Part shown: positions 1 through 34,478 of the stretch, in pieces | Position numbering within the stretch: the first letter of the stretch is position 1 | Layout of the letters: every line of letters begins with the position of its first letter | Assembly: GCA_964553245.1 (NCBI GenBank) | Contig: CAZKJM010000001.1 | Coordinates: 145,806-209,805 of the forward strand | Length of the DNA stretch: 64,000 nt | Origin: an uncultured Gammaproteobacteria bacterium | Lineage (GTDB): Bacteria; Patescibacteriota; Microgenomatia; Levybacterales; UBA12049 | Reading direction: 5' to 3' | Notes under the pieces: generated by a model | What the model was told of the DNA's origin: nothing | Database searches by the model: none | Seen by the model: the letters and a program-made list of their open reading frames with translations, nothing else | Made by a program: the position numbers and the translations under genes

Positions 1-2170
1 CATTTACTTTTGCGTTCCATCCTGGAAAATATGTATCTGACATATAAAATAATGCTTGCTCATTTGTATTTACCTTAAATTTCTGCTGATTAATGTTATT
101 GTCAATCAAAAAAGCTGAGCCAGTTCCCTCTTTAAGCAAAATAGGAAGTTTTTCGCTTAATATTATCTTTTTATTAAAATTTAATAATGGTCTGGATAAT
201 TCACTTAATGACTTATTATCGCTTAAAACTTCGTAATCATAAACAAGATAAAATCTTTTAAGCGCATTTTTATTTTTATAAACTTTATATTTAGCATCTG
301 CGTAAATCTCGTCTAAATCTTTTTGATATTTCCCGGTCAGAAAATAATCAATTGATGGATTCCCGTCTTTTCCTCCGACTATCAACTCAACACCCAGAAT
401 ATCAAGAGTATTTTTTAATTTTTCCTGTTTATTTAAATAATACTTATTTGTGCTTGGGGGCTTTTCATCTTTTTTCCCTTGCAATGACTGCAAAAGAAGA
501 GCTGTTCTTTGAAGATACAAAGGATTATATGTTTCGGTTGAATAAATATTTAAATATGTTGAAATTTCAGGATCAGATATTCCATAATTTCTTACCAAAT
601 TGTTCTTTTGGTAATCTTTAATGTAATCTATAACCTTAGTCTCAGGATATAAAAATTTATTATTTGAGAATGTTAAGAATCTATACCCTAGAACAAATAA
701 ATCTGTAAAAGTTATTAATAAAATTAAAAATATAAAAATTACATTTGAGGTCTTTATTTTTTTAAAAACTAAATAAAATGATGTAACTACAAAAAAAAGA
801 AAAGTAAATGCTAGAGTGAATTTAACATTATGTATAAATTCATTAATTAAATCGTGACTTGATAAGCTAATAATTTTCCCAATAATAATAAAAGCAAATA
901 ATAAAACAAATAATAAAATACTTATAAACAGCTTCTTTCTGTTTTTATCCTTTATAAAATTGTCAAAACCAAACCCGGCAAGAACTGATCCCGAAAATAA
1001 ACTGAGCATAAAAAGTCTTGCACCTGAGCCATTGGTTATTAAAGGTATTTTTAAATAAAACAAAATATCTCCAATGTATTTAAATGAAAATAAAGCGCTT
1101 AAAATAAAAACAAAAGTAAAGAATTTAACAAAAATATTTTTGCGAGAAAAAATTGAGGCAAAAATTGCAAAAAATAATGGGATAATTCCAAAATAACCAC
1201 TTGTTTCAATATATCCAGATGTTAAATTATTAGTACTTGGACTACCAAAAAAATCAGGCGAGAATAAACGAAACAAGCGAATGGGCGTTAATAATTCACC
1301 AGCAAATGTATTAAATTTATCAGAAAATTCCCTATGTGAATTACTAAATAATTCAAATGCAGGAATAAGGGATATTGAAGTAACCAATGCTCCAAATGCT
1401 ATTGACAAAAACAGAAAAAGGTAATCTTTTTTTCTAAGTTTCTTTAGATAACCATAGAATAATATAAACGCAATAACTAAAAGTATGCCATATGCACTAA
1501 ATTGCAAATGACCTGCAAAGATTGAAAAAGCTATAGAAACACCAAGTAAGAATAAATATGCTCCTCTTTTGTTATCTGCATATCTTTTTGCAAAAAGCAA
1601 GAAAAGTGGAATCCACAGTATTACATGTCCCTCAGATCCGAACTGTAAAAAACCCATCATTAGGGAATTTAAAGCAAACGCAAAGCTTGAAAGAATACTT
1701 GAAAAATAGGAAAGCTTAAAATCCCTTGCTAATAAATAAAAGAAAAGTAATGATAAAAATATTTGTAAAAACAACAGCATATTCCAAGATGTTATTTCAC
1801 CAAAAACAAAAAAAATATTTGTTGGATAAAAAATTAAGGGCTTTAAAGAAGCTAAAAATGGAGTTCCCATGAATTGATAAGGGTTCCAGAAGGGAATTAT
1901 TCCATTGGTTAATGACTGAAAAACTAAATGTCTCCATGGATACATTTGAATAATTGCATCTTGTGTATAATTATTTTTTATTAATATTGTCCCTGGAGAA
2001 TACCACGGAAGATAATTACTAATTAACAGGTCTAATGGAAGCAAGATTAATCCTTGAAACATCGGAAAAAGATAAACTGACGTTAAAATTAAGAAAAAAG
2101 TTACTATAGATGAAATCTCTATAATTCGTCTATATTTATTAATGAAGCATTTAACATTATTAAAATTCAT
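1..2170 (-). CDS. YfhO-like GT-C membrane protein, C-terminus beyond window edge (partial)
   Basis: My own translation of the minus strand from ATG at 2170, which overlaps the TGA of the upstream gene as ATGA. The reading frame stays open to position 1. The product carries the same motifs as the three full-length YfhO-like paralogs: 'QMYPWRHL', 'IPFWNPYQFMGTP', 'SPDFFGSPST', 'GYFGIIPLFF'. It is absent from the ORF track because it runs off the window. Confidence 0.75.
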   Translation of the reverse strand, partial: MNFNNVKCFINKYRRIIEISSIVTFFLILTSVYLFPMFQGLILLPLDLLISNYLPWYSPGTILIKNNYTQDAIIQMYPWRHLVFQSLTNGIIPFWNPYQFMGTPFLASLKPLIFYPTNIFFVFGEITSWNMLLFLQIFLSLLFFYLLARDFKLSYFSSILSSFAFALNSLMMGFLQFGSEGHVILWIPLFLLFAKRYADNKRGAYLFLLGVSIAFSIFAGHLQFSAYGILLVIAFILFYGYLKKLRKKDYLFLFLSIAFGALVTSISLIPAFELFSNSHREFSDKFNTFAGELLTPIRLFRLFSPDFFGSPSTNNLTSGYIETSGYFGIIPLFFAIFASIFSRKNIFVKFFTFVFILSALFSFKYIGDILFYLKIPLITNGSGARLFMLSLFSGSVLAGFGFDNFIKDKNRKKLFISILLFVLLFAFIIIGKIISLSSHDLINEFIHNVKFTLAFTFLFFVVTSFYLVFKKIKTSNVIFIFLILLITFTDLFVLGYRFLTFSNNKFLYPETKVIDYIKDYQKNNLVRNYGISDPEISTYLNIYSTETYNPLYLQRTALLLQSLQGKKDEKPPSTNKYYLNKQEKLKNTLDILGVELIVGGKDGNPSIDYFLTGKYQKDLDEIYADAKYKVYKNKNALKRFYLVYDYEVLSDNKSLSELSRPLLNFNKKIILSEKLPILLKEGTGSAFLIDNNINQQKFKVNTNEQALFYMSDTYFPGWNAKVN

Positions 2171-3675
2171 TTTAGGTCAGTTCGTTTTTGAACAACAATA
2201 TCTCCATTTAATTTTTTAGAAGACACAACTCTCCCATCTCCCTCTCTTGCTTCAAGCCACCACCTAGGTCTATCTGGATATCCCGGATCAGCCTCAATAA
2301 TAAAATACATTATGTCTGCTTTTTTAACAGGTAAGTATCCATATTGCTTGTTTCCATACCATTTAAATAAGTATTGATAAGTATTATCAAAAACAGGAGG
2401 AGTATATAATTCATATTTAAAATTTTGAGTATTTGCGTCTTTATAAATATAATCTACCACCTTTAATTGATTTCTATAGACCGATGCATCTCCTTCCCAT
2501 AATGGTTTTTGAAAATTATTAATAATTGAAAATGAATTAACGTTTATTAAAAAAAACATAGCTAAAATTAAAAAAATTATTATTTTAATTTTTATTCTTT
2601 TGTATGCAATAAATAAACTTATGGATACAAGAAAAATATAAAGAATTGGAAGTCCTACGAAATAATGCGGCCATAAAGCATTGGTAAATATAATGCTGCC
2701 AATATAAAAAACCAAAAGTGTAATTACTGAAGTTAAAATGAAATTTTTAATTAAAACTGACGCTTTTTTATAAAATAAGATAATTACTACTATAGAAAAA
2801 ATTAATAAAAATATTTCTAAAATATTTCTTTGCGGAAAAAATACATTACTGAATTGATCTAGATGAGTATTAAATCTATTCTCTAAAAAATGATATAAAT
2901 CTAATTTATCTTCAAGCGTATCTTTTCCAAAAAACCTAAGAAAAGCCTTGCTCATTATAAAACTATGCCTTAATTCAAAAATTATTCTTGGAAGTAAAAT
3001 AATTATTCCGCCAACAAAAAAAAATATTATATGACCGATTCTTATTTTTCTACCCAGAATGACAAGAATTGAAAAAACGATTCCAATTAAAAATAATATT
3101 CCCCATAAAATTTCAACGTCAATATTTAAAAACAAAAGAAAACCAAGAAGAAAAAAATAAATAGATTTCGATTTTTTATTTAATACATATATTCTTTCCA
3201 AAATTATAAAAGTTAAAATCACTAATAAAGGTGCTATATTAGGGTTCCAAATTTGAGAAGATAAGGAAATAAGAATTGGGGAAAATGAAATTAAGAAAGC
3301 CAATACCAAGCCCAGGAAACTTCCACTTATCTTTTTACCAAAATAATAACTTAAAATAATTGTTAAAATTCCAAATACCGCCATTGAAAAAGCAATCCCC
3401 TGAGGGTTACCGTTAAAAATAACAAAAAACGGAGTTAATATAAGGTACCACCATGGACCATAAAAAACTCCCTCAATTCCAGTAGTTGGTCCAATTAAAC
3501 TAAGTTTATGGTCATAAACCATACTCCAAAGAGAAAGCATATCTCGTCCAACGTCATATGTAAACGCAAATGAGCCAGTAAAAACCCCCTCTAGTCTTAA
3601 CACAAGCCCCAGTATCAAAATTAGACACAGAAATAAATAATCTTTTTTAAAAATTTTTTTAAAATAAAGGTTCAT
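2167..3675 (-). CDS. Putative GT-C fold membrane glycosyltransferase, PMT_2-like (paralog of 60172..61758)
   Basis: 502 aa, multi-pass membrane protein. First-loop acidic motif 'YDVGRD' and 'LIGPTTGIEGVFYGPWWY' align with 'GDEGRD' and 'LLGPTASVGGFFLGPIYYY' of the 60172 gene. Both share 'SSQIWNPN'/'SRSSWNPN'. Confidence 0.65.
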   Translation of the reverse strand: MNLYFKKIFKKDYLFLCLILILGLVLRLEGVFTGSFAFTYDVGRDMLSLWSMVYDHKLSLIGPTTGIEGVFYGPWWYLILTPFFVIFNGNPQGIAFSMAVFGILTIILSYYFGKKISGSFLGLVLAFLISFSPILISLSSQIWNPNIAPLLVILTFIILERIYVLNKKSKSIYFFLLGFLLFLNIDVEILWGILFLIGIVFSILVILGRKIRIGHIIFFFVGGIIILLPRIIFELRHSFIMSKAFLRFFGKDTLEDKLDLYHFLENRFNTHLDQFSNVFFPQRNILEIFLLIFSIVVIILFYKKASVLIKNFILTSVITLLVFYIGSIIFTNALWPHYFVGLPILYIFLVSISLFIAYKRIKIKIIIFLILAMFFLINVNSFSIINNFQKPLWEGDASVYRNQLKVVDYIYKDANTQNFKYELYTPPVFDNTYQYLFKWYGNKQYGYLPVKKADIMYFIIEADPGYPDRPRWWLEAREGDGRVVSSKKLNGDIVVQKRTDLK

Positions 3676-3679: not shown

Positions 3680-5335
3680 TCAAGTTTTTGCTACTCTTAT
3701 TGCGGGCATGCCATCTAAATTATTTATCGTCTTAAAAGCCGCGGCAGCCGGTATCTCATCTGGATTCCCAATATACAACACATCTTTATGGTTTGCGTCT
3801 TTTGACCAATCAATTGGTCTAAATTCGTATTTGCCAAAAGATTGGTGCTCTGCAAATCCTCCCGAGCTACCCATTCCTATTTCTTGATAGTCTTTAGGGG
3901 AATATTTTAAATAGAAAAGGAAAAACATATATGACTTATCCATTGGTTGCTTATCTGAGACAACAATTTTCTGATAATTTTTTTCTATTGGCTTAATCTC
4001 ATCAATTACCTGCCTATATCCATATTGCCAATCCTGTGAATAATAATAATTCTGTTGCACAAAATACTGATTTAGAAAAAATGAAAAATTAAAAAGAAAA
4101 ATCGAAGCAAAAAATACATACGAAACATAGATTATTTTTTTAAATTTTTGAATAGCTAAAACTAATGCAATAAGCCCAATTGCTGAAAAAATATGCCAAG
4201 TTGGTAAAAAGTTTAATGTTCTAACTGCATGAGGAACTCCTGTTGTAACTGATGCTGGAATAGGAGCAATTAAAAACCAAAAAAATATAATAAGTTTTGA
4301 CTTTTTATCAAATTTACCAAAAATTAATGAATAGATTCCAATTAAGATTAAAGGTAATTCAAATAAGTACAAAAGACCGACACTTGGTGCATGATGACGG
4401 GAAATATCCCCTGTCATAAACAACCAATTTAAATCAAAATGCGAAATATATCCCGAAACAATTGTCTTTGCGTAAACAATTCTTCTGTTGTCTAAGAGAA
4501 AGCCAATCTTATTACCATCTTTAATATCCCTTTCAAGTTTTTGAGTATTTGTTTTTAAAAGCTCTGTTTTGTACGAAAAAATACTAGTTCCTTTTACCCT
4601 CAAAAGAGATGAGCTATCAGTCAAAACATAAATTACCATTGGTGTTAATACTACAAGCACTAAGACCACCGCTGATATTAAATATTTTTTACTGATCGAA
4701 AAAAGTTGTTTTCTATAAATTAAGATTAGAGCAATAACTAAAAGTGGAGTAAATACCCTAGTGCTTTGATAAATATATGGAGCAAGCCCTACGAAAATTG
4801 CTGAAACATATAAAAACCAAGGCTTTTTTAAGCCTTTTAGGAAAAACAAGACAATTAAAATATTAAAAGAAGAGCCAACGTTTGCCTCAAAACCAATTCT
4901 TGAAAACTGCAAAGACCAAGGAGATACTGCTAGAAAAAAACTTGTTAAAAGCGCAAGGCAATCTCTAAATTTATAACTTACAAATAAGTCTCTTATAAGA
5001 AAAAATACTGCTATAACTGAAGCAACTCCAAAAAAAGCAGAGGGAAATCTTACAGCAAATATATTTAATCCAAACGCTAAAATTGATGGAATAGAAAGAT
5101 ATGAATAAAGCGCTGGTTTATAATCATCAAAAGACCTAAGAACAACAGGTAAAAATTTTCCAAATTCATCTCTTCCTGTTTGAATAATTGAGTATGTATT
5201 GTAACCCAAGGCAACCTCATCCCAATCAGGCGAAGGGGGAACATTTCCAAGTTGATAAAATCTCAAAAATATTGCGATTAAAATAATAACTCCAAAAACA
5301 ATCCAAATTAATTTTTTAATCATAAGTATATGCAA
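3680..5335 (-). CDS. PMT/ArnT-family (GT39/GT83-like) GT-C glycosyltransferase, tandem paralog 1 of 5
   Basis: 551 aa. N-terminal 'RFYQLGNVPPSPDWDEV' with a DE motif in the first extracytoplasmic loop, then 'GRDEFGKFLPVV...DYKPALYSYL', about 11 TM segments and a roughly 150 aa C-terminal soluble domain. Confidence 0.8.
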   Translation of the reverse strand: MHILMIKKLIWIVFGVIILIAIFLRFYQLGNVPPSPDWDEVALGYNTYSIIQTGRDEFGKFLPVVLRSFDDYKPALYSYLSIPSILAFGLNIFAVRFPSAFFGVASVIAVFFLIRDLFVSYKFRDCLALLTSFFLAVSPWSLQFSRIGFEANVGSSFNILIVLFFLKGLKKPWFLYVSAIFVGLAPYIYQSTRVFTPLLVIALILIYRKQLFSISKKYLISAVVLVLVVLTPMVIYVLTDSSSLLRVKGTSIFSYKTELLKTNTQKLERDIKDGNKIGFLLDNRRIVYAKTIVSGYISHFDLNWLFMTGDISRHHAPSVGLLYLFELPLILIGIYSLIFGKFDKKSKLIIFFWFLIAPIPASVTTGVPHAVRTLNFLPTWHIFSAIGLIALVLAIQKFKKIIYVSYVFFASIFLFNFSFFLNQYFVQQNYYYSQDWQYGYRQVIDEIKPIEKNYQKIVVSDKQPMDKSYMFFLFYLKYSPKDYQEIGMGSSGGFAEHQSFGKYEFRPIDWSKDANHKDVLYIGNPDEIPAAAAFKTINNLDGMPAIRVAKT

Positions 5336-6956
5336 CTAATACTTCTTGCCCATTTAAACGATAAAATCTTTTTAATATATTTATATTTTCCGGCAAATTA
5401 TATGGCGTATTTATGTATAACACATCATTTTTTTTACTTAATTCATAATTATACTCATCTGGAAAAAGATACTTATCATAGCCTTTAATTGTTACAAATC
5501 CAAACGGATCCCTTTGAATACTTGCTGTTTCTCTAAAAAATTTAGGATTTGTTTCTGTATAAAATAAATAATAAACATATGGTCTTCCAAGTGCGCTTGT
5601 GATCTGAATATAGTCATAGTTTTTTTCAACAGATCTTACGTATTCAATAGATTCTTTATATCCATATTGCCACTCCCCAGAGTACTCATACGGATAATGA
5701 TTAATATAATTATGTAAAAAGTAAATAATGTTTAAAAACAGCAACAAAGAAATAATAGTAATTATTGTTGCCGACACCCATCTTTTATATTTTTTTATCC
5801 AAAAAAGGAACCTTACAAAACCATAAGCTGCTAAGATTTGAAACGTTGGGAGAGTAGTTTCAATTCTTAATGCATGAGGAGTTTCTCTTGCTGTTGCCGC
5901 CGGAATGATCCCAATCAATAACCAAGCTGGTATAATCCACCAATTATCTTCTCTCTTTCTTATTAAAAGAATTATCCCACCAACAAAAAAAGCAATATCC
6001 CAGATATACATTTGTCCAACATCTTGAATTGAAAACTTAGGATTACCATCCCCTCTTATAAATAGAAAATTTGGGGCTAAATTATCAAAATAATGTCTTA
6101 TGTATTCAAGCGAATAAAAAACTCTTCTATTATGAATTATATTTGACCAAAGAGTATTATTATTATTTTTAATTTGTTGATTTGCTGTTTTTACAACATT
6201 TATATCGGAAAAGATATTTACTTCTTTAAACCTTAAACTAGCTTGAGGAGATAGTAAAAATCCGACAATAGGAATAATTATTAATACACCTGCTATAATT
6301 GCTAATCCTATCTGTTTTTTTAAATTAAGAAGTTTTTTTCTAAAAGCAAATAAAAGAAGGAGTGCTAAAATAGGCACAACCACCCTTGATGTATTAAAAG
6401 TATATAGTGATATTGCAAATAAGATTGCAGAAATTACTAAATACCATTTTTTATCCTGAATCCCTGCTAAAAATGCCCAAATACCAGTTACAATAAAAAA
6501 ACTGGCAACATTTGCCTCAAACGCTGCTCTCGATAACATTATATGCCACGGAGATATAGCTAAAAACAGTGATGAAAATAATGCGTAATAATCTTTTTGT
6601 TTCGATCTATAAAAGATTCTCTGGGCTAAAAAGTAGGTCATAAATACTGTTAAAAATCCAAAAAAAGCTGATGGTAATCTAGTTGAAAATTCATTTAAAC
6701 CAAGAAGTTTAACAGGAATAATTGTTAAATATGCGTAAACAGGAGGTTTAAAATCTCCGAAGGATTCAAGATAATCATATGGAAGAAATCTTCCAAATTC
6801 ATCTTTTCCATCAATTCCTAATGAATATGCATTATATCCCCAAGATACCTCATCCCATGTAAGACTAGGGGGATTTTGTCCTAATTGATAGAATCTAATA
6901 ATAAACGAAAGTATTAAAACTAATACTAAAAAAATTTTAGCTTTATTTTTCCACAT
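5316..6956 (-). CDS. PMT/ArnT-family GT-C glycosyltransferase, tandem paralog 2
   Basis: 546 aa, 'RFYQLGQNPPSLTWDEV', 'GKDEFGRFLP', 'FGDFKPPVYAYL'. Overlaps the neighbouring gene by 20 nt. Confidence 0.8.
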   Translation of the reverse strand: MWKNKAKIFLVLVLILSFIIRFYQLGQNPPSLTWDEVSWGYNAYSLGIDGKDEFGRFLPYDYLESFGDFKPPVYAYLTIIPVKLLGLNEFSTRLPSAFFGFLTVFMTYFLAQRIFYRSKQKDYYALFSSLFLAISPWHIMLSRAAFEANVASFFIVTGIWAFLAGIQDKKWYLVISAILFAISLYTFNTSRVVVPILALLLLFAFRKKLLNLKKQIGLAIIAGVLIIIPIVGFLLSPQASLRFKEVNIFSDINVVKTANQQIKNNNNTLWSNIIHNRRVFYSLEYIRHYFDNLAPNFLFIRGDGNPKFSIQDVGQMYIWDIAFFVGGIILLIRKREDNWWIIPAWLLIGIIPAATARETPHALRIETTLPTFQILAAYGFVRFLFWIKKYKRWVSATIITIISLLLFLNIIYFLHNYINHYPYEYSGEWQYGYKESIEYVRSVEKNYDYIQITSALGRPYVYYLFYTETNPKFFRETASIQRDPFGFVTIKGYDKYLFPDEYNYELSKKNDVLYINTPYNLPENINILKRFYRLNGQEVLVAYTYD

Positions 6957-17495: not shown

Positions 17496-17565
17496 AATCT
17501 TATTTTATCAAGTTTATAAACCTATTGCATTCTCATAAAATAAAATAATATAATCTAGTAAGAAT

Positions 17566-25534: not shown

Positions 25535-27033
25535 TTATTTTTTTTCTTTCTAGTAAAAATTATACCAAGAACAACTATTAATATACCAGCTAGGGAAATA
25601 CTATTTCCGATTTTTTCTATAGGAGTGTCTATAAACACAAAAATTGGTTTGTTTTTTAATGCTTCTTCTGCATTTTTAGGTTTCTTAACATTTTTAGGGA
25701 GGTATTCATCGGAAATTTTTGAAGTTGTCCACCTTAAACTATAGTCATTAATATAGTCATTCGCTGTTTTATTTAATATTTCTCGTGGATGAAAAAATTT
25801 AAAATTTACCAAAACAATCAAAAGAATTGTTATTAAAAATTCTACAAAAATTATATTTTTATTTTTTATAAATTGTCTCGAAAATACAATAATTGAACCC
25901 CCTAAGAATGCGCTAAAAAATCCAACCATATTTAAATAACGCCATGGGTATTGAAAATATTTCATTGGAGAAATTAACTCCCAAATAATTTTAGATTGAG
26001 AAAGCATCAGGAAAATGGAAAATATTAATCCAGAAAACAAAACTATACACAAATATTTTGTTTTTTTATCAATTTCTTTTCCGAGCATCAAACTAATTAT
26101 TAAAAAAATCATAGAGAAAACAACGATTAAAATGTTTAATTTTCCTAACATAAACGACAATCCATCGCTACATGTTTTTGTAGATCCACCAAAACCCCAA
26201 TAGCTATACCAAAGTTGATCTAAGCATACGAAATGATCTTTGAAATCAGCTCCGCCACCGATTGTTGAAGAAACATTCGTATTGCCCATTTCCAAAATAG
26301 CCGGAAGCCAGTAAAATGCAGAAATTAATATGCTAAGAAAAAATGCAGAAATTAAATAAAACGTATTCTTGTTCTTTTTATGCTTTAAATTTAAGATTCC
26401 TAAAATTATAAGTAAAACTATCAAAAAAGGAGTAATCATCATTGCTGTTAAATTATGAGAAAGAATTACCCCGGAAAATCCGATTACAGAAATAATCACG
26501 TAAATGTATTTATTATTTTTAAATAATTTATAAAATCCAAAAAATGCTAAAGGAATAAAAGCATATGCCCACAGCTCGGAAATTGCTCCTCTGACATAAA
26601 TATTTACAGCATGATATGGAAAAAACACATATAAAAGAGCTGATATTATCCCTCCTTTTTTACCCCAAAATTCCCTGGCCAATAAATACATTGAAAAACT
26701 CGATAATAAAACCCCAAATATAATCATAATTTTTGTTGAAACTAAAGCGTCAAACCCTAATAAAACAAACTTTGCACCAAAATAATATGCAAGCGGCGCA
26801 TAGAAGTTAAAAATTGGATAACCAAGCCCGTAACCAAGGTCAGCTACCCATCTAACTGGAAACATCCCCATTTTGAGCGATTTTGCCATTTCATAAACTC
26901 TTTGCACTTGTGTATCATCGTGCATTGGGAAAAAACCGGAGTGAAAAAAAGACAAAATGCTAAAAGATGATAATAAAATTACCAAAATATATGGAATTAA
27001 TTTTTTGAATAAAGCCATACCTGTATTATACAA
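25531..27033 (-). CDS. Unclassified polytopic membrane protein, GT-C-like (paralog of 27061..28581)
   Basis: 500 aa, about 12 TM segments. First-loop 'SGFFPMHDDTQ...MFPVRWVADLGYGLGYPIFNFYAPL' is paralogous to 'TGFFTTDDGNW...QFPVRFLPRLNNDFGYPVANFLYPL' of the next gene. I cannot place the family by eye. Confidence 0.55.
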   Translation of the reverse strand: MYNTGMALFKKLIPYILVILLSSFSILSFFHSGFFPMHDDTQVQRVYEMAKSLKMGMFPVRWVADLGYGLGYPIFNFYAPLAYYFGAKFVLLGFDALVSTKIMIIFGVLLSSFSMYLLAREFWGKKGGIISALLYVFFPYHAVNIYVRGAISELWAYAFIPLAFFGFYKLFKNNKYIYVIISVIGFSGVILSHNLTAMMITPFLIVLLIILGILNLKHKKNKNTFYLISAFFLSILISAFYWLPAILEMGNTNVSSTIGGGADFKDHFVCLDQLWYSYWGFGGSTKTCSDGLSFMLGKLNILIVVFSMIFLIISLMLGKEIDKKTKYLCIVLFSGLIFSIFLMLSQSKIIWELISPMKYFQYPWRYLNMVGFFSAFLGGSIIVFSRQFIKNKNIIFVEFLITILLIVLVNFKFFHPREILNKTANDYINDYSLRWTTSKISDEYLPKNVKKPKNAEEALKNKPIFVFIDTPIEKIGNSISLAGILIVVLGIIFTRKKKNK

Positions 27034-27060: not shown

Positions 27061-28581
27061 TTATTCGATTTTATATCTGAAAAAGCTAATTAAACATAAA
27101 ATTAGAAGAGAAATTAGCGAAAAAATATCTGCAAACAACCTAATTTGTGTCTCCGTGAAATAAACCTGGACAAAATGGCTTCCTGAATTTAGGTTAAATT
27201 GAATTAATCCACCTTCGTTGTTATGGTTAATCATAGCTTTTTCCCTATTAACCACAACCATCCATCCGGGGTAATAAATGGTATTGATAGAGATCAGTGA
27301 TTTTTCTTTTATATCTGCTGTAAAACTGATCTTGCTCCCTTTATTTATTAAATTTTTAATCTCTCCTTTTCCTTTGATAATTTGAACTTTTTCTAAAGAA
27401 TTAGATATGGGTAATTTATTGACCCAATTAGGAATATATTCATTTTTTACTGTAGTTGTATCTTGATTGGTCGAGTAAAAAGCATCGGGATAATTAGTAA
27501 ATTCTTTTGGATAAATAAAATCTTTTGCTCCAAAAACCAAAAAAACCAAATAAATTCCCAACAGAATTATTTTTTGCTTTCCTTTAATAAGAGATAGTTG
27601 ATAAGCTATCAAAAAAGTTGTAGTTAAAACCAAGATTGAAATAAACCTAAAAGGAAATTGAATATAAGACGAAATAACCTGCCAAATAAAATCGGAGATT
27701 GGAAAAAGTAAAAACAAAACAATTACCGAAGATGCAAAAAATAACCAATAACTTCTATCCTTTATCTTTTTTACAAAAACAAAAGTAAATAGAAATGAGA
27801 TCAAAAACACCAAACCAATTAAATTTAAATCATGGAAATTTATAAAATAATTAGAATAGTCAGAGACCAAAACTCTATCAAAAACCACAAATCTTCTTTC
27901 ATAAATTGCAGGAAACCAAAAAAAACAAGATATCCCTAATCCAAAAATTAAAGATGTTAATATTTTTTTAATTTTCTTTTGGGAGAAATAATAGTAAAAA
28001 ATAATTATTGGAAAAAATAATAATGCCAATGTGTTATGTGATAAAACTAAAGCTGCAATACCAATGGATACAAAAAATAAACTATTTCTTTCTATCTGCC
28101 AAAAAATAAACGGGATAATTGATAATGCCAAAACTTCCCCAACTGATCCTCTTTTATAAACATCCCATAAATGATATGGAAAATATAAATAAACCAAAGA
28201 CCCAATCATAGAGGATAGGTTGTCAAACTTTTTTCTAAGCCACATAAAGGAAAAAAATGCTGAAGAAATTAAGCTTAAGCCAAAAATTATTTTTATTGTA
28301 TTTACAAAACTAAAACCTAATAAGTGGATTGGCACACCGATATACATAAATAACGGATATAAAAAATTAGCAACCGGATAACCAAAGTCATTATTTAATC
28401 TTGGTAAAAATCTAACAGGAAACTGACCATTTTTTAAGGCTTCGTAGAAAGCAGAGAATCTTATTATCATCCAGTTGCCATCATCTGTTGTAAAAAATCC
28501 AGTTTTGAAAAGCGTAAAAAATGAAGGAATAGACAAAATTAAAATTATTATTAAATACTTTATTAATAATTTATCTTTCAT
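27061..28581 (-). CDS. Unclassified polytopic membrane protein, GT-C-like (paralog of 25531..27033)
   Basis: 506 aa. See the paralog entry. It has a C-terminal extracytoplasmic segment and a final TM anchor. Confidence 0.55.
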   Translation of the reverse strand: MKDKLLIKYLIIILILSIPSFFTLFKTGFFTTDDGNWMIIRFSAFYEALKNGQFPVRFLPRLNNDFGYPVANFLYPLFMYIGVPIHLLGFSFVNTIKIIFGLSLISSAFFSFMWLRKKFDNLSSMIGSLVYLYFPYHLWDVYKRGSVGEVLALSIIPFIFWQIERNSLFFVSIGIAALVLSHNTLALLFFPIIIFYYYFSQKKIKKILTSLIFGLGISCFFWFPAIYERRFVVFDRVLVSDYSNYFINFHDLNLIGLVFLISFLFTFVFVKKIKDRSYWLFFASSVIVLFLLFPISDFIWQVISSYIQFPFRFISILVLTTTFLIAYQLSLIKGKQKIILLGIYLVFLVFGAKDFIYPKEFTNYPDAFYSTNQDTTTVKNEYIPNWVNKLPISNSLEKVQIIKGKGEIKNLINKGSKISFTADIKEKSLISINTIYYPGWMVVVNREKAMINHNNEGGLIQFNLNSGSHFVQVYFTETQIRLFADIFSLISLLILCLISFFRYKIE

Positions 28582-30946
28582 AAATTCTTTTAAATAAAAT
28601 CAAGTAAATGATTAATAAGAATACTCCGATTATTGATATCTTAAGCCCCGTAATAAATGATTCTGGAAAATAATACATTTCTAGCCTATGCTCACCTTGT
28701 TTTATGGGAATCGCTCTAAAGCTGTAATTTGCTCTGTAAATTTCTTTTTCTTTTCCATCAATTAAAGCTTTCCATCCGGGAAAATAATTGTCTGATATAA
28801 AAAATAAACTGTCTGCATCTGTCTTTATTTTAAAATTTAATTTATTTGGTGTATAGTCAACTATTTCAATATTACTTTTGGAGATTTTTCCAAGGGTAAT
28901 TTTTGGATCTTTTTCTAAAATTAAGGTTTCCTGCAAGTTTACTTTATCGTCATATATTTTTGAAATTATCTTATCTTTTCCATTACTGATTTCATAATTA
29001 TCCGCTAAATAAAATCTTGGGAAAACATTTTTGTTTTCATAAATTTGCCAGGGATTTTTTTGCCAAATAAGTTTATATGAATCTTGCGGAAAGGTAACGT
29101 AATCCGGATTAAATGACCCAGACATTAATTCATCTTTATGTAAAACATATTTTATCCCTAACAGATTAAGGATTCTTTGCCTATATGGGTTACTTTTTAA
29201 ATCCATATTGCCAAAACCCGGAGCAATATTTGCATCCGGACGCGGTAAGATATTAGGTAATTCACCATATTTCGAAGAAGCTAATAACTCTCCATATGAA
29301 GAAATATGTAATGGGTCGTTTCCCTCCGGTGAATAAGTACCATCTACGCTTTGGTAATTCGATTGAATATAACCCGAGCCATATCCCCAGAAGCGATTGA
29401 TTCCGGCGTTTTCTTGCAAATAGTTCATAACCGGAGTATTGGGGTAAGTAAAACTGTATGGCGAAAAAGGTGTAATCTTATTAAAAAAATATAATAAATC
29501 AAAAATTATTAATAACAGCACAAAAACTAAACTTATGTTTTTAAATTTATTCTTTAGATAAAAAATAATTAACGTTGCCAGTGTTAAAAACGACGGCAAC
29601 AACATATTTCGAATGCTAATTTTAAAATTATTGTCCGTGATGTAACCTGCTTTATAAATTAAAAAAGCAGCTGAAGAAAACAAAAGTATTGCAAGAATAA
29701 AAAACAACGGGTATTTGCTTTTTAAATTTTTTTCTTCTATCCAATAATTAATCCCCATCGCACCAAGAACTATTATTGAAAAAATGAAAATGCATAATTC
29801 TCTGGTCGGAATTGTTGTTGAAATTACCGGAATCGGCAATAAGTAAAAATACTTAATAAACGGTATATTTGTCGCAATGATTAAAGACAACGCTGCAATA
29901 ATTCCAAAAAATTTTTTTTCCGGTTTTTTTACTTTTAAAATTGCATAAACTGCGAAGAAAAAAATAACAACTCCCGGATACATTACTCTTTCTATATATG
30001 TTCCGTCAATCCAGTAATTCCTTGATGCGGGATTGCCAAAAAAATCAGGAAAAATTATTGTTATCCAATAATAAATCGGGGATAAAGTTTTGGAAAATTG
30101 TTCCAGTGCATATGATCCACGTGTTGAATTTTTAAAAATCTCAAGAGTCGGTAAAAATTGAAAAGCGGATAAAATGAATGGAAAAAATAAAATACTTAAA
30201 AAAATTATTGTTTTTTTTATCTTAGCCTTAACTTTTTGCGAGAACAACAAAAATAAAAAATATAACAAACAAATACTGTAAGCATAAAAAACTCCCTGGA
30301 TATATCCCGCCAATAAACTTAACGTAAAAATAATAATTAACGATAAAACATTTTTATAATTTTGTTGTTCTGTAAGCTTATTTATCAAAAAAAGAGCAAG
30401 AGGCAGCCAAAGAAACGTAGAACCAATATTGCCGTATTCTATCCAAACTACCATATATGAAGAAAACGCAAAGGCAATTCCGCCTATAACCGAAACAGTT
30501 TTTTGAAGCCGTAATCCTTTGTTTAAATAAATAAACATAAAGATTGCGGCAAAAAACGGTTGAGACATGATAAATAATGTCCAAGCAAAATTAAAAGGTA
30601 AAAATAAATAAAAAAGATTTAACGGATAAAAAACTGCTGTTTGAAAATTTGCCATCTGAGGGTTTCCGGAAAAATTATGAGGATTCCAAAAAGGAATTTG
30701 CCCGTTTTTCAGCTGCTCTATGGAAAAATACTTCCAAGGATATATTTCGTTTATTACATCTGGACCTTGTGCTTTATCTGGATAACTTCCCGGAGAATAT
30801 CCCAAAAACGATTCGCTTCTGTAGGGATTTTGGTTAATCAATAAGTCTCCGGGGAAAGGAATTTGTCCGTTAAAAATCGGTTTAAAAAAAATAAGTACAA
30901 TAAAAAGAATCAACAGATACGGATAAGTCCTTTTTAAAATTTTCAT
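28571..30946 (-). CDS. YfhO-like GT-C membrane protein
   Basis: 791 aa, 'NEIYPWKY', 'WNPHNFSGNP', 'IFPDFFGNPASRNYW', 'YPGVVIFFFAVYA'. Confidence 0.8.
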   Translation of the reverse strand: MKILKRTYPYLLILFIVLIFFKPIFNGQIPFPGDLLINQNPYRSESFLGYSPGSYPDKAQGPDVINEIYPWKYFSIEQLKNGQIPFWNPHNFSGNPQMANFQTAVFYPLNLFYLFLPFNFAWTLFIMSQPFFAAIFMFIYLNKGLRLQKTVSVIGGIAFAFSSYMVVWIEYGNIGSTFLWLPLALFLINKLTEQQNYKNVLSLIIIFTLSLLAGYIQGVFYAYSICLLYFLFLLFSQKVKAKIKKTIIFLSILFFPFILSAFQFLPTLEIFKNSTRGSYALEQFSKTLSPIYYWITIIFPDFFGNPASRNYWIDGTYIERVMYPGVVIFFFAVYAILKVKKPEKKFFGIIAALSLIIATNIPFIKYFYLLPIPVISTTIPTRELCIFIFSIIVLGAMGINYWIEEKNLKSKYPLFFILAILLFSSAAFLIYKAGYITDNNFKISIRNMLLPSFLTLATLIIFYLKNKFKNISLVFVLLLIIFDLLYFFNKITPFSPYSFTYPNTPVMNYLQENAGINRFWGYGSGYIQSNYQSVDGTYSPEGNDPLHISSYGELLASSKYGELPNILPRPDANIAPGFGNMDLKSNPYRQRILNLLGIKYVLHKDELMSGSFNPDYVTFPQDSYKLIWQKNPWQIYENKNVFPRFYLADNYEISNGKDKIISKIYDDKVNLQETLILEKDPKITLGKISKSNIEIVDYTPNKLNFKIKTDADSLFFISDNYFPGWKALIDGKEKEIYRANYSFRAIPIKQGEHRLEMYYFPESFITGLKISIIGVFLLIIYLILFKRIYER

Positions 30947-32532
30947 TATTCTTTAGGCGGAATAATTTTATAAACCCTGTAAAAATAATCGCTGTTTCCT
31001 GACCTTACCTGAAAAACTAATTCAAGCGGGTAGTCTTGATTAATAATTTGATTATTAGGTTGATAAAATACAAAGTATGAAGGCATTTTCTTGGAGTATT
31101 CAATTGTTTCTTTAGCGAGGCTGTGCTCAACCGGCCAATAACCTTTTATCGTAATATTTTTGTTATTTATTAAATATAACTCTAGAGCTTCAGGCATTAA
31201 ACCAAATGTTCCTTCGGTTGCAATAAATATCTTCTTGTTTTTTGCTTCTTTTTTAAAAAATTCAACACTTTCATTAACTCCCCAACCAGCCGCCCAGCTG
31301 TTTACGTACTGTCTACTATCACTTCTTACAATTGGTGCATTAATCGGGTCACTGGCAACTTTAAAACTTACAAATCCTGGATAAGCAACGAAAATAACTG
31401 TTACTACAATATAAACAACAGTTGATAAAATATTTTTTTTCTTTTTATTAAGTCTTTTATCTACAAAACCAATAATTTCGTTTAACCCCCAACCGGCAAG
31501 AGGAAGCAAGAAACAACTCATAAAAAAAATAAATCTCGGAAAAATTACTTTTCCAAAAAGAGCAAGCGCCGTAAATGGCAAGAGAAAATAAATTATCAGT
31601 AATATTTTTTCTTTTGTAAATTTATTTATAAAAATTAAGGATAAAATAACTAATAACACATATGGTAATTTTAAATATTGAATTAACCAGTCAAAAAGAC
31701 CATATAGATTCCCCACGAAAAATGTAAAAGGGTGATTGACCCACTCGGAAAAAGGATAAACAAAAGTCGCATTTTTAGCTTGAACCATTTGAAATAAGGG
31801 AGAGAGTCTTAGGGTGTTGTAAATAATTTGCGCAATAAAAATTGATATTAAAGCAAAAACTACCCATTTTAAAAGTCTTCTTAGAGTGTTTTTCCTTGAA
31901 AAATCAAAAAGTAAAATCGTAAAAGGTAAAAGATACTGACTGAAAAAATTTGAACTTTTTGTTAAAGCTCCTAATCCCATAACTACGCCTAATGTGTAAA
32001 CAAAATCAAACCTTGTTTTCTTAATAAGTTTTATAGAAAAATAAAAAGCCCAAATAGAAAAAGTTGCAACCATACTGTCCATTAATGCCATTCTGTCATT
32101 TATTTGTGCGAACGGATAAAAAACATAAAGAATTGAACTTAAATAAGCAATTTTTTTATTTTTAAAAAGCTCAATAGTTAGAAACCAAACCCCAATCATT
32201 GTGAGAAATCCTGTGCTTACAGAGACTACTCTTCCGGCAATTAGCGGATCGCTTATGAATTTCATGAAAATCATCGCTGTCCAAACAAATAAAGGCTGTT
32301 TACCATCTGTTAGGGAAATATACCTCCAACTTGCATCATTCAAAGCAATTTGTGCCCACCTAACATAAATTGCTTCGTCGGTAAAAATAGGCATAGAATC
32401 CAAATATAAAAGCCTAAAGAAGAAATATAAAAAGCCTACAAAAATCGCAAAAATAATTTCAATTTTGTTTTTTTTCAAAAACATCATACTTTGATTATAC
32501 AGAACCAATACGCTTAAGGTAAATAAGTACAA
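30946..32532 (-). CDS. PMT/ArnT-family (GT39/GT83-like) GT-C glycosyltransferase
   Basis: 528 aa. DE motif at 'MPIFTDEAIYVRWAQ', then 'DGKQPLFVWTAMIFMKF', about 11 TM segments and a C-terminal soluble domain. Confidence 0.75.
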   Translation of the reverse strand: MYLFTLSVLVLYNQSMMFLKKNKIEIIFAIFVGFLYFFFRLLYLDSMPIFTDEAIYVRWAQIALNDASWRYISLTDGKQPLFVWTAMIFMKFISDPLIAGRVVSVSTGFLTMIGVWFLTIELFKNKKIAYLSSILYVFYPFAQINDRMALMDSMVATFSIWAFYFSIKLIKKTRFDFVYTLGVVMGLGALTKSSNFFSQYLLPFTILLFDFSRKNTLRRLLKWVVFALISIFIAQIIYNTLRLSPLFQMVQAKNATFVYPFSEWVNHPFTFFVGNLYGLFDWLIQYLKLPYVLLVILSLIFINKFTKEKILLIIYFLLPFTALALFGKVIFPRFIFFMSCFLLPLAGWGLNEIIGFVDKRLNKKKKNILSTVVYIVVTVIFVAYPGFVSFKVASDPINAPIVRSDSRQYVNSWAAGWGVNESVEFFKKEAKNKKIFIATEGTFGLMPEALELYLINNKNITIKGYWPVEHSLAKETIEYSKKMPSYFVFYQPNNQIINQDYPLELVFQVRSGNSDYFYRVYKIIPPKE

Positions 32533-33701
32533 TTTTTAAAAACTTTTTTGAGGATATATAAAAAGGTAAACAATAAAATAATTATCAAACCTGTAATTTC
32601 AATATTTAGAACTACAAAAGGATAACTTTTATCATAGTCGCTTAAATAAACATAGGGAATATAAATCGCTGTCCCGAAGAATGACAATATAAAACTGGAA
32701 ATAAATATATATTGCTTCTTAGAAACTAATGCCGCGAAGGGCAAAACATATAGTAAATACCAAGGCTGAAACGTTGTTCTAGTAGAGGCAATTATTACTG
32801 CAATTAAGGATAAAAAAATACTTAATGTAAATATTTTTTCCCAATTAATTTCTTTTTTTGTTTTCTTTAAATAAAAAACAACCGGAAAAACAGGCAGTAA
32901 AACAATATTGGCATATTTTATTCCTACCGAAAATAAATAAACAACAGCTGAAGAGATATTTCTATTTTTTATCAATAAATAAAATGAAAACAGTGTAAGG
33001 AAAATCATTGGAATATCATTATGGGAAGAAACTAATCCTTCTATTATTACCAAAGGATTTAATCCCCAAAATATTAAGTTAAAGATTAAATTTTTTGGAA
33101 AGACCGCTTCTGAAATTTTATAAATAAAATAGCTTGTTCCTAAAAAACAAGCTGCTATCAACAACTTAAATAAGACCATTGTAGGCAAAAAATAATTCAT
33201 TCCAATATAAGACAATGGAACAGTTAAAAAAAGCCAACTTGGACCATATGGATACAATCTGTGTGTCCAGCGCATAAAATTAAGCATTGGATCAGCTGGA
33301 AAATCAAGAGGTTTATACAAAAAAGGGTTTTTATTATAGAAGGTCAATATTTTTGCATCGAAAATATAATTAAAAAGATCGTAAGAAAAAGCATTGTAGG
33401 ACAAGGCAAGAATTATTACCGTTCCAAATATTAATATCAATGCTTGTTTTTTAGTTATTTTGTTTTTATTGGCAAAATAAAGAAAACGAGAATAAAATAA
33501 AAACATTAAAAATAAAATTATGGAAAAGACCAAAGCTGACGTTGGGCGCTGAAAAAAACCTAAATATTGAAAGTTTTTTTGAATAGACTGCCAAAAAGAT
33601 GCTCTTGATAAAGTCAAACTTAAATCAACTTGCGTAAAAGAATATAAGAAAAGACCAACTATTGTCGTAAAATAACCAAATGCAAGAATTTTAAATTTCA
33701 T
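32514..33701 (-). CDS. Polytopic membrane protein, possibly GT87/DUF2029-like mannosyltransferase
   Basis: 395 aa and highly hydrophobic. 'RLYPYGPSWLF' and 'IIEGLVSSHNDIPMIF' resemble DUF2029-type GT-C proteins. The assignment is tentative. Confidence 0.45.
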   Translation of the reverse strand: MKFKILAFGYFTTIVGLFLYSFTQVDLSLTLSRASFWQSIQKNFQYLGFFQRPTSALVFSIILFLMFLFYSRFLYFANKNKITKKQALILIFGTVIILALSYNAFSYDLFNYIFDAKILTFYNKNPFLYKPLDFPADPMLNFMRWTHRLYPYGPSWLFLTVPLSYIGMNYFLPTMVLFKLLIAACFLGTSYFIYKISEAVFPKNLIFNLIFWGLNPLVIIEGLVSSHNDIPMIFLTLFSFYLLIKNRNISSAVVYLFSVGIKYANIVLLPVFPVVFYLKKTKKEINWEKIFTLSIFLSLIAVIIASTRTTFQPWYLLYVLPFAALVSKKQYIFISSFILSFFGTAIYIPYVYLSDYDKSYPFVVLNIEITGLIIILLFTFLYILKKVFKNCTYLP

Positions 33702-33707
33702 TGAGGT

Positions 33708-34478
33708 TTATTTATACTTTCCCTTAACACTGTTAATCTTTATTAAAAACAAATCTATTAAACCATTAATGGAATCTTTTATAGGGTTTACTCTTCTTGT
33801 TTCCACATATAGCCATTTAATTGGAACTTCTTTAATTCTATAGCCCATTTTTTGAGCTATATGTAAAAGCTCTACATCAAACCCCGCTGTAACAGAAGAT
33901 CCTGATATTGTTTTAAATCCATTATGTAATTTTAATATTTTTGTAAAAAGTTTATTGGAAGAATCTTTCGTAAATGTTTTGAAACCACATTGAGTATCGC
34001 TTATCCCTCTTACGCCAACGATTAGAGTTCTTAACAATATCATTCCTTTTGCCATTACTGCTCTTGTCCAAGGAGCACCTTTTCTGGTTGAATTTCTACT
34101 TCCAATAATTATGTCGTAATTTTCTTTAAAATAAGGCAATAACTTATCTAACTCTTCTATGGGAGCAGCCTGATCCATATCTGTAAAAAGCTGATAATCA
34201 CCTTTTGCTGCTAACATTCCCGTTGTTACGGCACCGGCTTTTCCGGTATGTGAATTTTTAATCAATCTAAAATTATTGTGTAGTTTTACAAAATCTTCTA
34301 TAAAAGCAATTCCATCATCATCGGATCCATCGTCTACAATTAAAACTTCGTAATTAAACTTTTTTTTACTCAGGAAGCTTTCAATCTTATCAAGGACTCC
34401 TTTTTGAAGATTTGCCATTTCGTTATAACAAGGTATTACAACAGAGAGGAAAATTTTATTCATAAAAGAATTATACAA
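33708..34478 (-). CDS. GT2 polyprenol-phosphate sugar synthase (DPM1-like)
   Basis: 256 aa, 'LSVVIPCYNEMANL', 'LIVDDGSDDDGIAFI', 'GKAGAVTTGMLAAKGDY', 'TDMDQAAP'. First gene of the minus-strand array. Upstream on the minus strand lies TTGTTT-N17-TATAAT. Confidence 0.75.
   Translation of the reverse strand: MYNSFMNKIFLSVVIPCYNEMANLQKGVLDKIESFLSKKKFNYEVLIVDDGSDDDGIAFIEDFVKLHNNFRLIKNSHTGKAGAVTTGMLAAKGDYQLFTDMDQAAPIEELDKLLPYFKENYDIIIGSRNSTRKGAPWTRAVMAKGMILLRTLIVGVRGISDTQCGFKTFTKDSSNKLFTKILKLHNGFKTISGSSVTAGFDVELLHIAQKMGYRIKEVPIKWLYVETRRVNPIKDSINGLIDLFLIKINSVKGKYK

Follow-up and report, generated by a model that had tools for sequence, protein, structure and literature searches.

In Lactococcus, synthesis of the PSP polysaccharide begins with WpsA, a glycosyltransferase family 2 (GT2) enzyme without transmembrane (TM) segments that resembles the polyprenol-phosphate-sugar synthase DPMS and that produces GlcNAc-P-C55 with the small membrane protein WpsB as its activator. 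Cytoplasmic glycosyltransferases extend GlcNAc-P-C55, a Wzx-like flippase exports the product, and membrane transferases of the GT-C class polymerize and transfer it (PMC10821137). Here we analyze a glycosylation locus of similar logic in a stretch of 64,000 nucleotides (positions 145,806 to 209,805 of contig CAZKJM010000001.1; hereafter the window), in which it occupies positions 2-34478 with genes numbered g01 to g26 from the left. The closest relatives of the window proteins belong to Candidatus Levybacteria/Levyibacteriota, in the Microgenomates group of the Patescibacteria, and the small-genome organism supposed in the initial annotation is a member of the Levybacteria, within the candidate phyla radiation (CPR). 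Every enzyme family found here is known and the logic resembles that of known systems. What appears to be undescribed is the combination: at least 42 kb with about 18 GT-C genes of four families, three TM-less synthases, an embedded DUF5652 gene and lineage-wide conservation in a very small genome. We found no published description of the locus in the literature that we searched on CPR/Patescibacteria/Levybacteria glycosyltransferases and DUF5652. The reading that we favor, with roughly even confidence, is that the locus would encode a Levybacteria-wide pathway for a complex envelope glycoconjugate, organized as a two-compartment assembly line in which a PMT_2 array adds variable outer decoration.

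The lactococcal PSP genes (WpsA/WpsB, WpsC-F, WpsG, WpsH/I, WpsJ) and the streptococcal GacI/J/K/L share with the present locus a TM-less DPMS-like GT2 enzyme, cytoplasmic extension, Wzx-type export and GT-C enzymes, in a branch that starts from undecaprenyl monophosphate and operates without a phosphoglycosyltransferase (PGT) (PMC10821137, PMC8035078). They have one synthase and two or three GT-C enzymes, whereas the locus has three synthases and at least 14 GT-C enzymes. No homolog of GacJ/WpsB was recognized here, the DUF5652 protein being the sole small membrane protein, and no rhamnan, TagO or ABC-exporter branch is visible. A second parallel is the archaeon Haloferax, in which AglJ starts a glycan on dolichol phosphate, further glycosyltransferases and the S-adenosylmethionine (SAM)-dependent methyltransferase AglP elaborate it, AglR, described as acting as, or assisting, the Dol-P-mannose flippase, moves Dol-P-Man outward, and the final sugar is added on the outer side by AglS, a GT-C enzyme (PMC3871713). 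The Agl cluster of Haloferax volcanii and the eukaryotic ALG-GPI pathways resemble the locus in their AglJ/DPM1-like synthases, GT2/GT4 extenders, AglP, AglR/RFT1-like flippase, Dol-P-dependent GT-C enzymes (AglS, ALG3/6/9/12, PIG-M) and clustered genes (PMC3871713). The host here is a bacterium, however; the locus has far more GT-C paralogs and no oligosaccharyltransferase of STT3/AglB type (no WWDxG motif), and the similarity is at superfamily level.

Three other kinds of system invite comparison. CsbB-GtcA-YfhO, GtlA/B, CsdAB/CD/EF and ArnC-ArnE/F-ArnT likewise combine a GT2 synthase with GT-C enzymes of the YfhO or PMT_2 families, encoded by adjacent genes. Unlike CsbB, GtrB and ArnC, the synthases of our locus lack C-terminal TM helices; no GtrA-type flippase gene lies inside the locus, GT-C genes outnumber synthase genes by about 5:1, and genes for Leloir glycosyltransferases are embedded among them. 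In mycobacteria, phosphatidylinositol mannosides (PIM), lipomannan, lipoarabinomannan and arabinogalactan are made by PimA/B, Ppm1, PimE, MptA-C, Emb and Aft, with cytoplasmic priming by GT4 enzymes, a DPM1-like synthase as donor source and many GT-C enzymes that lengthen a lipid- or wall-bound glycan outside the membrane; the lipoglycan branch uses no PGT. Points of likeness are a weak match of g25 to the MptA model, a structural match of g25 to PimE, and matches of g21 to AftA, AftD and Emb. The mycobacterial genes are scattered over 4.4 Mb, whereas the present genes are gathered in a single locus of at least 42 kb, and the genome is probably smaller than 1 Mb; YfhO and PTPS_related proteins are not in the mycobacterial set, and the sequence matches lie far under equivalog thresholds. 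Classical Wzx/Wzy loci share the Wzx flippase, GT2 and GT4 enzymes with the locus, but here no PGT, Wzy, Wzz/PCP or ligase was detected, GT-C enzymes dominate, and gene order is conserved across a phylum-level lineage.

The ORF listing, together with a translation of the left edge, places 25 minus-strand open reading frames (ORFs) in 2-34478, and the genes named below lie on that strand unless stated otherwise. The initial annotation had counted 26 genes, all on the minus strand, from a list that itself sums to 25; one gene, g13 (DUF5652, 17566-17808), is on the plus strand. Coding sequence makes up about 100% of the interval. The junctions were described as mostly overlapping or abutting, and of the 24 between minus-strand ORFs, 15 are overlaps (1-22 nt) and 8 are gaps of at most 27 nt; such tight packing suggests a few long transcription units. 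The single sizeable gap (17496-17763, 268 nt) holds g13. Promoter and terminator scans at 17300-18000 and 34300-35300 did no better than with shuffled sequence. Outside the locus, the remaining 29.5 kb of the window carries 21 minus-strand and 8 plus-strand ORFs; the same-strand orientation of the locus is above this background, but moderately.

On the right, the locus starts with g26 (33708-34478) and is bounded, as initially placed, by a gene for tRNA-Glu(CTC) (34544-34618, plus strand; ARAGORN). On the left it does not stop at the window edge, to which it had been traced, but runs on for at least 7.8 kb in a public Logan contig of 77,989 bp with exactly matching genes. This extension holds, in order, the rest of g01, a paralog of g02 on the opposite strand (25% identity), a paralog of g21/g22, a 765-aa GT2/PMT_2-like fusion, an epimerase and a further PMT_2 protein, and brings the total to at least 42 kb with about 18 GT-C genes (14 in 2-34478 and about 4 to the left of the window). 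Together, the window and the 7.8-kb extension amount to about 72 kb, out of at least 560 kb for the whole genome, and the same proteins are also recorded on a contig of 561,761 bp. GC content is lower in the locus than in its flank (27-30% versus 31-35%). We considered horizontal acquisition as an explanation and rejected it: the gap lies mainly at codon position 1 (0.347 versus 0.431; GC3 0.213 versus 0.239) and is accounted for by amino-acid composition, and the position of the locus near Lon is conserved in relatives.

All 14 GT-C enzymes proposed for 2-34478 are supported by family or fold evidence. They have 6-12 predicted TM segments each and span four families: YfhO, PMT_2, PTPS_related and an ALG3/PimE-like type. 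Searches with hidden Markov models (HMMs) and with structures support this GT-C identity and did not lead to families outside the glycosyltransferases. Four proteins had been called YfhO-like, and three of them match PF09586 well above its gathering threshold of 28.5 bits: g11 (14158-16428; 99 bits, E 2.9e-28), g14 (17764-20091; 114 bits, E 1.2e-32) and g23 (28571-30946; 119 bits, E 2.4e-34). The fourth, g01 (2-2170; about 10 predicted TM segments), is cut by the left edge of the window, which retains the N-terminal 723 of its 779 aa. Truncated in this way it has no Pfam match, but alignments of more than 700 aa with g11, g14 and g23 show 30-31% identity (E 1e-70 to 1e-81), and PF09586 is present in the full-length public copy. 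The C-terminal region of g14, the one YfhO paralog tested against PDB sequences, shows likeness to PgfM2/PgfM1, and that PDB search gave no relative.

Six proteins described as PMT/ArnT-like all exceed the gathering threshold. Five of them form part of a tandem array: g03 (3680-5335), g04 (5316-6956), g05 (6943-8598), g07 (9187-10869) and g08 (10848-12479), with PMT_2 scores of 35.0, 49.4, 29.5, 40.2 and 40.9 bits against a cut-off of 26.1. The sixth, g24 (30946-32532; PMT_2 E 2.2e-12, PMT E 3.5e-6), is distinct from the array. Of these, g04 (50.9 bits), g07 (43.0) and g24 (27.2) also pass the cut-off of 22.7 bits for PMT (PF02366). The tandem paralogs g03, g04 and g05 are 28-37% identical to one another, g07 and g08 have about 11 predicted TM segments each, and the best PDB sequence match of g04 is ArnT (5ezm, E 0.014). 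All six carry a D-E motif in loop 1, after the first TM segment, and the corresponding D35 and E36 are invariant across the alignment of PMT paralogs. For none of the paralogs did Pfam report a PMT_4TMC or MIR domain at E up to 0.01, and their predicted architecture is nearer to ArnT/PMT_2 (GT83-like) than to protein O-mannosyltransferases. A seventh protein, g02 (2167-3675; about 10 predicted TM segments), is a divergent member, with a PMT_2 match under the cut-off (E 0.005); the view of it as a PMT_2 paralog gains support from hhalign against the PMT paralog profile (96.7% probability, E 3e-10).

The two proteins initially left unclassified apart from their HDD and TDD motifs, g21 (25531-27033, HDD) and g22 (27061-28581, TDD), are indeed paralogs (28% identity), with matches to PTPS_related (E 5e-9) and weak matches to YfhO and PMT_2. 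An AlphaFold model of g21 (pLDDT 88.6, pTM 0.91) retrieved only GT-C proteins among its top 26 Foldseek matches, led by STT3, PglB and AglB from E 8e-6 and including AftA, ArnT, AftD, Pmt4, DPY19 and Emb. D39 of the HDD motif, which follows the first TM segment, is invariant in a family alignment of 41 sequences. In profile-profile comparison with hhalign, the g21 family was linked to the YfhO paralogs at 99% probability and to the PMT paralogs at 97.7%, the links among GT-C families running through the N-terminal modules. We considered and rejected a role of g21/g22 as oligosaccharyltransferases. Although the best fold matches are enzymes of that kind, the g21 model has just about 60-80 extracytoplasmic C-terminal residues in place of a large C-terminal domain, and neither a WWD nor a W[WYF]DxG motif occurs among the GT-C candidates of the locus.

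The remaining GT-C protein, g25 (32514-33701), is compact. It had been called DUF2029-like, and this did not hold: Pfam gave no DUF2029 (GT87) match at E up to 0.01, and the closest structural neighbors are ALG3, ALG6, PIG-M and PimE. These four enzymes extend lipid-linked glycans with polyprenol-phosphate sugars. The score against the MptA model TIGR03459 was 38 bits, with a cut-off of 439. Public annotation assigns PF26314 to every g25 homolog; our local copy of Pfam did not report that family for g25.

Very probably, the GT-C enzymes are fed by polyprenol-phosphate-monosaccharide donors from DPM1/ArnC-like GT2 enzymes. Three such synthases had been proposed, and all three are TM-less GT2 proteins (237-256 aa, no predicted TM segment) whose best PDB relatives, with matches spanning the entire catalytic domain, are DPMS, GtrB or ArnC. 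For g09 (12494-13213; Glycos_transf_2 E 4e-39), the best PDB match is the Pyrococcus furiosus DPMS 5mlz (E 2.8e-18, residues 2-222), with GtrB and ArnC next, and the best NCBIfam match is AglJ (E 5.5e-34, full length, under the cut-off). ArnC is the best match of g20 (24821-25534; Glycos_transf_2 E 1e-27) in both NCBIfam and PDB (E 1e-22 and 5e-18, residues 5-218). The third, g26 (Glycos_transf_2 E 8e-26), is closest in PDB to DPMS (E 1.8e-14) and GtrB (E 8e-14), and its best NCBIfam model is PgfS. Scores of the synthases against the equivalog models AglJ, ArnC, PgfS and PpgS ranged from 38 to 118 bits and none passed the cut-offs, which range from 325 to 529; the likeness is therefore at subfamily level and does not allow the donor sugars to be assigned. 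The extended DxDxQ motif, for metal and nucleotide binding, that is highlighted for this class of enzymes (PMC10821137) is exact in g20 (DGDNQ at 97), and g09 and g26 carry variants (DADLE, with Q changed to E, and DMDQA, with the register shifted). Each synthase gene abuts a GT-C gene (g26 beside g25, g20 beside g21, g09 beside g08), which suggests donor-specific modules.

Five further Leloir-type transferases, a flippase and a methyltransferase complete the set, all of them as first annotated. The GT2 enzyme g10 (13210-14154; Glycos_transf_2 E 7e-27) has one C-terminal TM segment (269-287) and weak EpsD/PgaC-like matches, and its orthologs in relatives are 58-67% identical. The cytoplasmic GT4 (GT-B) enzyme g12 (16425-17495; Glycos_transf_1 E 3.4e-23) also shows a match to ALG11_N under the threshold and a full-length alignment with PglH (E 5e-9); its homologs number more than 5000, the close ones in Levybacteria. 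Two cytoplasmic GT2 enzymes follow: g15 (20078-20854; Glycos_transf_2 E 3e-15), which is 34% identical to g18, and g16 (20851-21768; Glycos_transf_2 E 2e-11), which weakly matches the rhamnosyltransferase model TIGR01556 (E 1e-18). The best PDB match of the GT2 enzyme g18 (22473-23378; Glycos_transf_2 E 1.6e-22) is Listeria GmaR (E 6e-19). In the 765-aa protein of the left extension (17104-19401 of L002, about 5.6-7.9 kb to the left of the window), a GT2 domain with 38% identity to g18 is fused to a PMT_2-like GT-C domain, a hint that GT2 enzymes of the g15/g18 type may work directly with GT-C partners. The Wzx-type MOP flippase g19 (23380-24834; Polysacc_synt_3 E 4.4e-53) has NCBIfam matches to MOP flippase PRK10459 (E 2.8e-40), to an O-glycosylation flippase (E 3.9e-36) and to TuaB, all under equivalog cut-offs. 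The cytoplasmic SAM-dependent methyltransferase g06 (8595-9197; Methyltransf_11 E 1.5e-12) has no TM segment and is 56-67% identical to its orthologs in relatives.

Gene order also bears on how these parts belong together. A search of GTDB genomes anchored on g25 yielded 22 Levybacteria loci, with orthologs mostly 45-73% identical to the window proteins. Orthologs of g26 and g25 are direct neighbors in 21 of 21 relative loci, the g24 ortholog follows that of g25 in 19 of the 19 loci that reach that far, and a g22 homolog and then a g21 homolog occur in every locus of sufficient length, with g20, g19 and g18 next where the sequence allows; the run g26-g25-g24-(g23)-g22-g21-g20-g19-g18 is seen across the 22 loci. 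A comparison anchored on g12 in three genomes (L025, L026 and L027, with g12 identities of 77%, 53% and 54%) carried this further. The order g22-g21-g20-g19-g18-g16-g15-g14-g13-g12-g11-g10-g09, with the DUF5652 gene g13 on the opposite strand, is identical in all three, and the orthologs of g22 to g09 and of the methyltransferase are 49-82% identical. The g06 ortholog comes directly after g09 in L026 and L027, and two genes further downstream in L025. The conserved core consists of 17 genes (g26 to g09 without g17), kept in order and orientation at about 50-80% identity, and the synteny comparison suggested in the initial annotation has brought out a core that is conserved among Levybacteria. 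One irregularity is that in L027 (11065-13327) the g11 ortholog is split into ORFs of 301 and 475 aa, which could reflect a frameshift, a pseudogene or an assembly error. Six of the records that carry a Levybacteria-type locus (L005, L008, L010, L013, L014 and L015; g25 identity 54-60%) are titled 'uncultured Gammaproteobacteria bacterium'; some of them have a Lon protein at 79-80% identity, and the titles look like mislabeled taxonomy.

Around this core the content varies. Within the otherwise fixed order, the interval between g24 and g22 is a rearrangement hotspot, in which the g23-type YfhO gene is sometimes joined or replaced by extra PMT_2 genes. Instead of a co-directional YfhO gene of this type, L003, L013 and L014 have an inverted PMT-YfhO-PMT cassette, and other relatives have one to three extra PMT_2 genes between their g24 and g22 orthologs. 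The PMT_2 array (g02-g08) is mosaic between genomes. In L025, the genome nearest to this one, g03-g05 lack clear orthologs (best matches 36-39%), whereas more distant genomes have orthologs of g03, g04 or g08 at 54-69%, from which we conclude that these three paralogs are old and individually retained. In terms of gene order, the locus is best described as a conserved core with a variable periphery. The initial annotation had seen in it many separate reactions that diversify the surface; this stands for the PMT_2 array and for some cassettes of the g24-g22 interval, and fits the 17-gene core poorly. Upstream of the g26 ortholog, relatives repeatedly carry ORFs of about 369, 212 and 510 aa, which we considered as a PGT or sugar-modifying module. 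Their N-termini, inspected without HMMs, look like those of a secreted protein, a membrane-fusion protein and a major facilitator superfamily (MFS) transporter, and we rejected the idea.

A single pathway with a defined product is favored by the conserved order of the 17 genes and by the presence within the core of a Wzx flippase and five cytoplasmic Leloir transferases. From the family and fold identities, gene order and conservation described above we propose the following scheme, in which the substrates, the order of reactions, the mode of priming and the final acceptor are conjectural. On the cytoplasmic face, the GT4 enzyme g12 and the GT2 enzymes g10, g15, g16 and g18 would build a short glycan on a lipid carrier, with methylation by g06. 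Priming could proceed without a classical PGT, by one of the TM-less DPMS/AglJ-like enzymes (g09, g20 or g26) placing the first sugar on polyprenol monophosphate; alternatively, the GT4 enzyme might prime a glycerolipid, as in mycobacterial PIM/lipomannan synthesis. The flippase g19 would then move the lipid-linked intermediates outward. The three synthases would also supply up to three different polyprenol-phosphate monosaccharides, each perhaps dedicated to the GT-C enzyme encoded next to its gene. Outside the membrane, the GT-C enzymes, at least 14 in number, would extend, branch and finally transfer the glycan, a step for which the structural neighbors of g25 lend support in that they act on lipid-linked glycans. 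The conserved core would thus specify an invariant structure and the mosaic PMT_2 array strain-variable outer decorations.

Several points weigh against this pathway. Its functional statements all rest on homology, and the matches to the equivalog models AglJ, ArnC, MptA, PglH and WzxC are all far under the cut-offs. Polyprenol-phosphate monosaccharides can be the sole cargo of a Wzx-type flippase, as proposed for GacK (PMC8035078, PMC10821137), and the presence of g19 is therefore no proof of an oligosaccharide intermediate. An activator of GacJ/WpsB type was not recognized in the locus. Outside the 72 kb or so that we covered, the genome could encode a PGT, an LCP ligase or an ABC exporter. 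Conserved synteny, finally, is also compatible with decorating enzymes that are conserved but independent of one another.

The main alternative, in line with the initial annotation, is that the locus is a collection of independent multi-component glycosylation systems, each with a GT-A synthase, a flippase and a GT-C enzyme, that place single sugars on proteins or wall polymers made elsewhere, with g19 as a shared flippase. We regard this as possible, with a chance well short of even. The abutting synthase and GT-C genes recall csbB-yfhO, csdAB and ykcBC; YfhO and PMT_2 proteins are the GT-C parts of known systems that decorate teichoic acids and rhamnan; the mosaic nature of the PMT_2 array fits such a collection; and one flippase can serve several donors, Wzx-type flippases having been proposed for systems of this kind (PMC8035078). 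The organism does appear to use modules of this type. At the right end of the window, a PMT_2-type GT-C gene (60172-61758, minus strand; PMT_2 E 1e-15), a gene for a GT2 domain fused to GtrA (61755-62894, minus strand; Glycos_transf_2 E 5e-25, GtrA_DPMS_TM E 6e-14) and a gene for an NAD epimerase (62894-63859, minus strand; Epimerase E 4e-44) make up what reads as a self-contained, textbook-style three-component glycosylation unit, apart from the supercluster. As an account of the locus as a whole, however, independent decoration leaves the five conserved cytoplasmic Leloir enzymes and the core methyltransferase without a role. It must also accommodate at least 14 GT-C enzymes alongside three donors, a ratio that greatly exceeds the 1:1 pairing in the described systems, and a strict order over 17 genes that is more typical of a single pathway, and it sits poorly with g25, the nearest structural relatives of which act on lipid-linked glycans.

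A bolder version of the assembly line, which we think rather unlikely, is that the locus would be a bacterial counterpart of the archaeal Agl/eukaryotic ALG logic. By this analogy, a DPM1/AglJ-like synthase would prime without a PGT while tethered or activated by the DUF5652 protein, as by DPM3, GacJ or WpsB; GT2/GT4 enzymes and the methyltransferase would elaborate the glycan, RFT1/Wzx-like flipping would follow, and about 20 GT-C enzymes would complete the glycan and attach it to S-layer, pili or wall. The protein in question, g13, has 80 aa and matches PF18893 (E 3e-25), and the last 45 nt of its gene overlap the 3' end of g14. An ortholog of 50-72% identity lies in the same place and orientation in L025, L026 and L027. 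As the only small membrane protein encoded in the locus, g13 may, by analogy, serve to anchor or activate the TM-less synthases.

General O- or N-linked protein glycosylation, of the archaeal Agl, actinobacterial Pmt or streptococcal Pgf/GtrB-PgtC2 type, differs from the favored pathway mainly in its acceptor: the targets would be S-layer, pilin or Ser/Thr-rich anchored proteins, and one GT-C family would transfer the glycan to protein. Pointing this way are the Pfam PMT matches and loop-1 D-E motifs of g04, g07 and g24, the oligosaccharyltransferases STT3, PglB and AglB among the best fold matches of g21, the proximity of g09 to AglJ and of g19 to the O-glycosylation flippase model, and a parts list that mirrors the Haloferax Agl cluster down to the SAM methyltransferase (PMC3871713). 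The locus also encodes the Ser-rich anchored protein noted initially, g17 (21771-22469), with a TM segment at residues 16-34, 13% Ser, and an extracytoplasmic linker (44% Ser/Thr in the 25-aa window of residues 88-112) of the kind glycosylated in streptococci (PMC12041528). Neither Pfam nor NCBIfam gave a match to g17, the C-terminal domain of which belongs to an unannotated family with 859 cluster representatives. We considered g17 as a conserved acceptor protein and rejected it: no homolog was found in 25 loci from other genomes, the gene is missing between the g18 and g16 orthologs of L025, L026 and L027, and by this comparison g17 was inserted in this genome and its near-identical copies alone. 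Ser/Thr-rich stretches occur in just one other window ORF. The GT-C enzymes of the locus also lack the WWDxG motif and the large C-terminal domain that oligosaccharyltransferases have, and the Pfam reports show no PMT_4TMC or MIR domain; taken together, these points make protein glycosylation an unlikely account.

An ordinary Wzx/Wzy exopolysaccharide or O-antigen-like locus, with its PGT, polymerase and chain-length regulator elsewhere or too divergent to recognize, would explain the standard core of Wzx, GT2 and GT4 genes and is helped by the fact that just about 72 kb of the genome was covered, but it is very unlikely, given that neither the relatives beside their loci (where the recurrent upstream ORFs look like an efflux system) nor the Pfam records of the left extension nor the window offer such parts, that loci of this class are normally strain-variable rather than conserved in order across a phylum-level group, and that fourteen GT-C genes have no place in the scheme. 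Specifically, among the 55 window ORFs scanned, Pfam matched neither a WecA/MraY-type (PF00953) nor a WbaP-type (PF02397) PGT, nor Wzy/O-antigen ligase (Wzy_C, EpsG), nor Wzz, and the records of the genes called in the 7.8-kb extension contain no PGT, Wzy, Wzz or ligase. The initial annotation had reached by eye the same list of missing parts and had concluded that the cluster did not look like a classical O-antigen or capsule locus; for loci of the Wzx/Wzy type, our results support that conclusion.

Two GT-C-type genes lie inside the window and outside the locus, the PMT_2 gene at the right end and a DUF2079 gene (35199-36626, minus strand; PF09852 E 3.4e-50) just beyond the tRNA, where it had first been placed. 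The latter is possibly related to the locus; we found no homolog at that position in relatives, whose interval from Lon to g26 varies. Between the tRNA-Glu and DUF2079 genes is a putative gene of 117 aa (34757-35110, plus strand) with no family match and a moderately Ser/Thr-rich stretch, and a terminator-like hairpin lies at 35050-35075. The rest of the window is mostly housekeeping: Lon, glutamyl-tRNA synthetase, a class II aminoacyl-tRNA synthetase, RecJ, CCA-adding enzyme, MetK, SecDF and a D-Ala-D-Ala carboxypeptidase. An orphan GT4 gene (39730-40941, minus strand; Glycos_transf_1 E 5.5e-32) sits between a DUF1003 gene and a DEAD-box helicase gene. At 44058-45034 (minus strand), a gene of the DgkA-type diacylglycerol kinase family (122 aa) overlaps by 4 nt an ORF of 203 aa that has no Pfam match. 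Some members of this kinase family are undecaprenol kinases in Gram-positive bacteria, and the gene could matter for the supply of lipid carrier.

To our knowledge, almost nothing is known about the cell-envelope chemistry of CPR/Patescibacteria, in whose biology the cell surface is central, given a lifestyle predicted to be episymbiotic. The locus probably builds a major cell-surface glycan, to judge from the conservation of most of its gene order, and with at least 42 kb against a contig of 561,761 bp it would be among the largest genomic investments of the organism. The conservation of its core across Levybacteria argues for an essential, lineage-defining surface polymer, not an accessory capsule. 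The favored assembly line predicts three polyprenol-phosphate-sugar donors, PGT-free priming and a product with a conserved core and a variable outer part, and the locus is a compact natural source of divergent GT-C enzymes from the YfhO, PMT_2 and PTPS_related families. If the likeness to Agl/ALG should prove true, such a pathway would be shared by Levybacteria and perhaps by the wider Microgenomates, and the locus, estimated to occupy 4-8% of the genome, would determine the main surface these cells show to a host.

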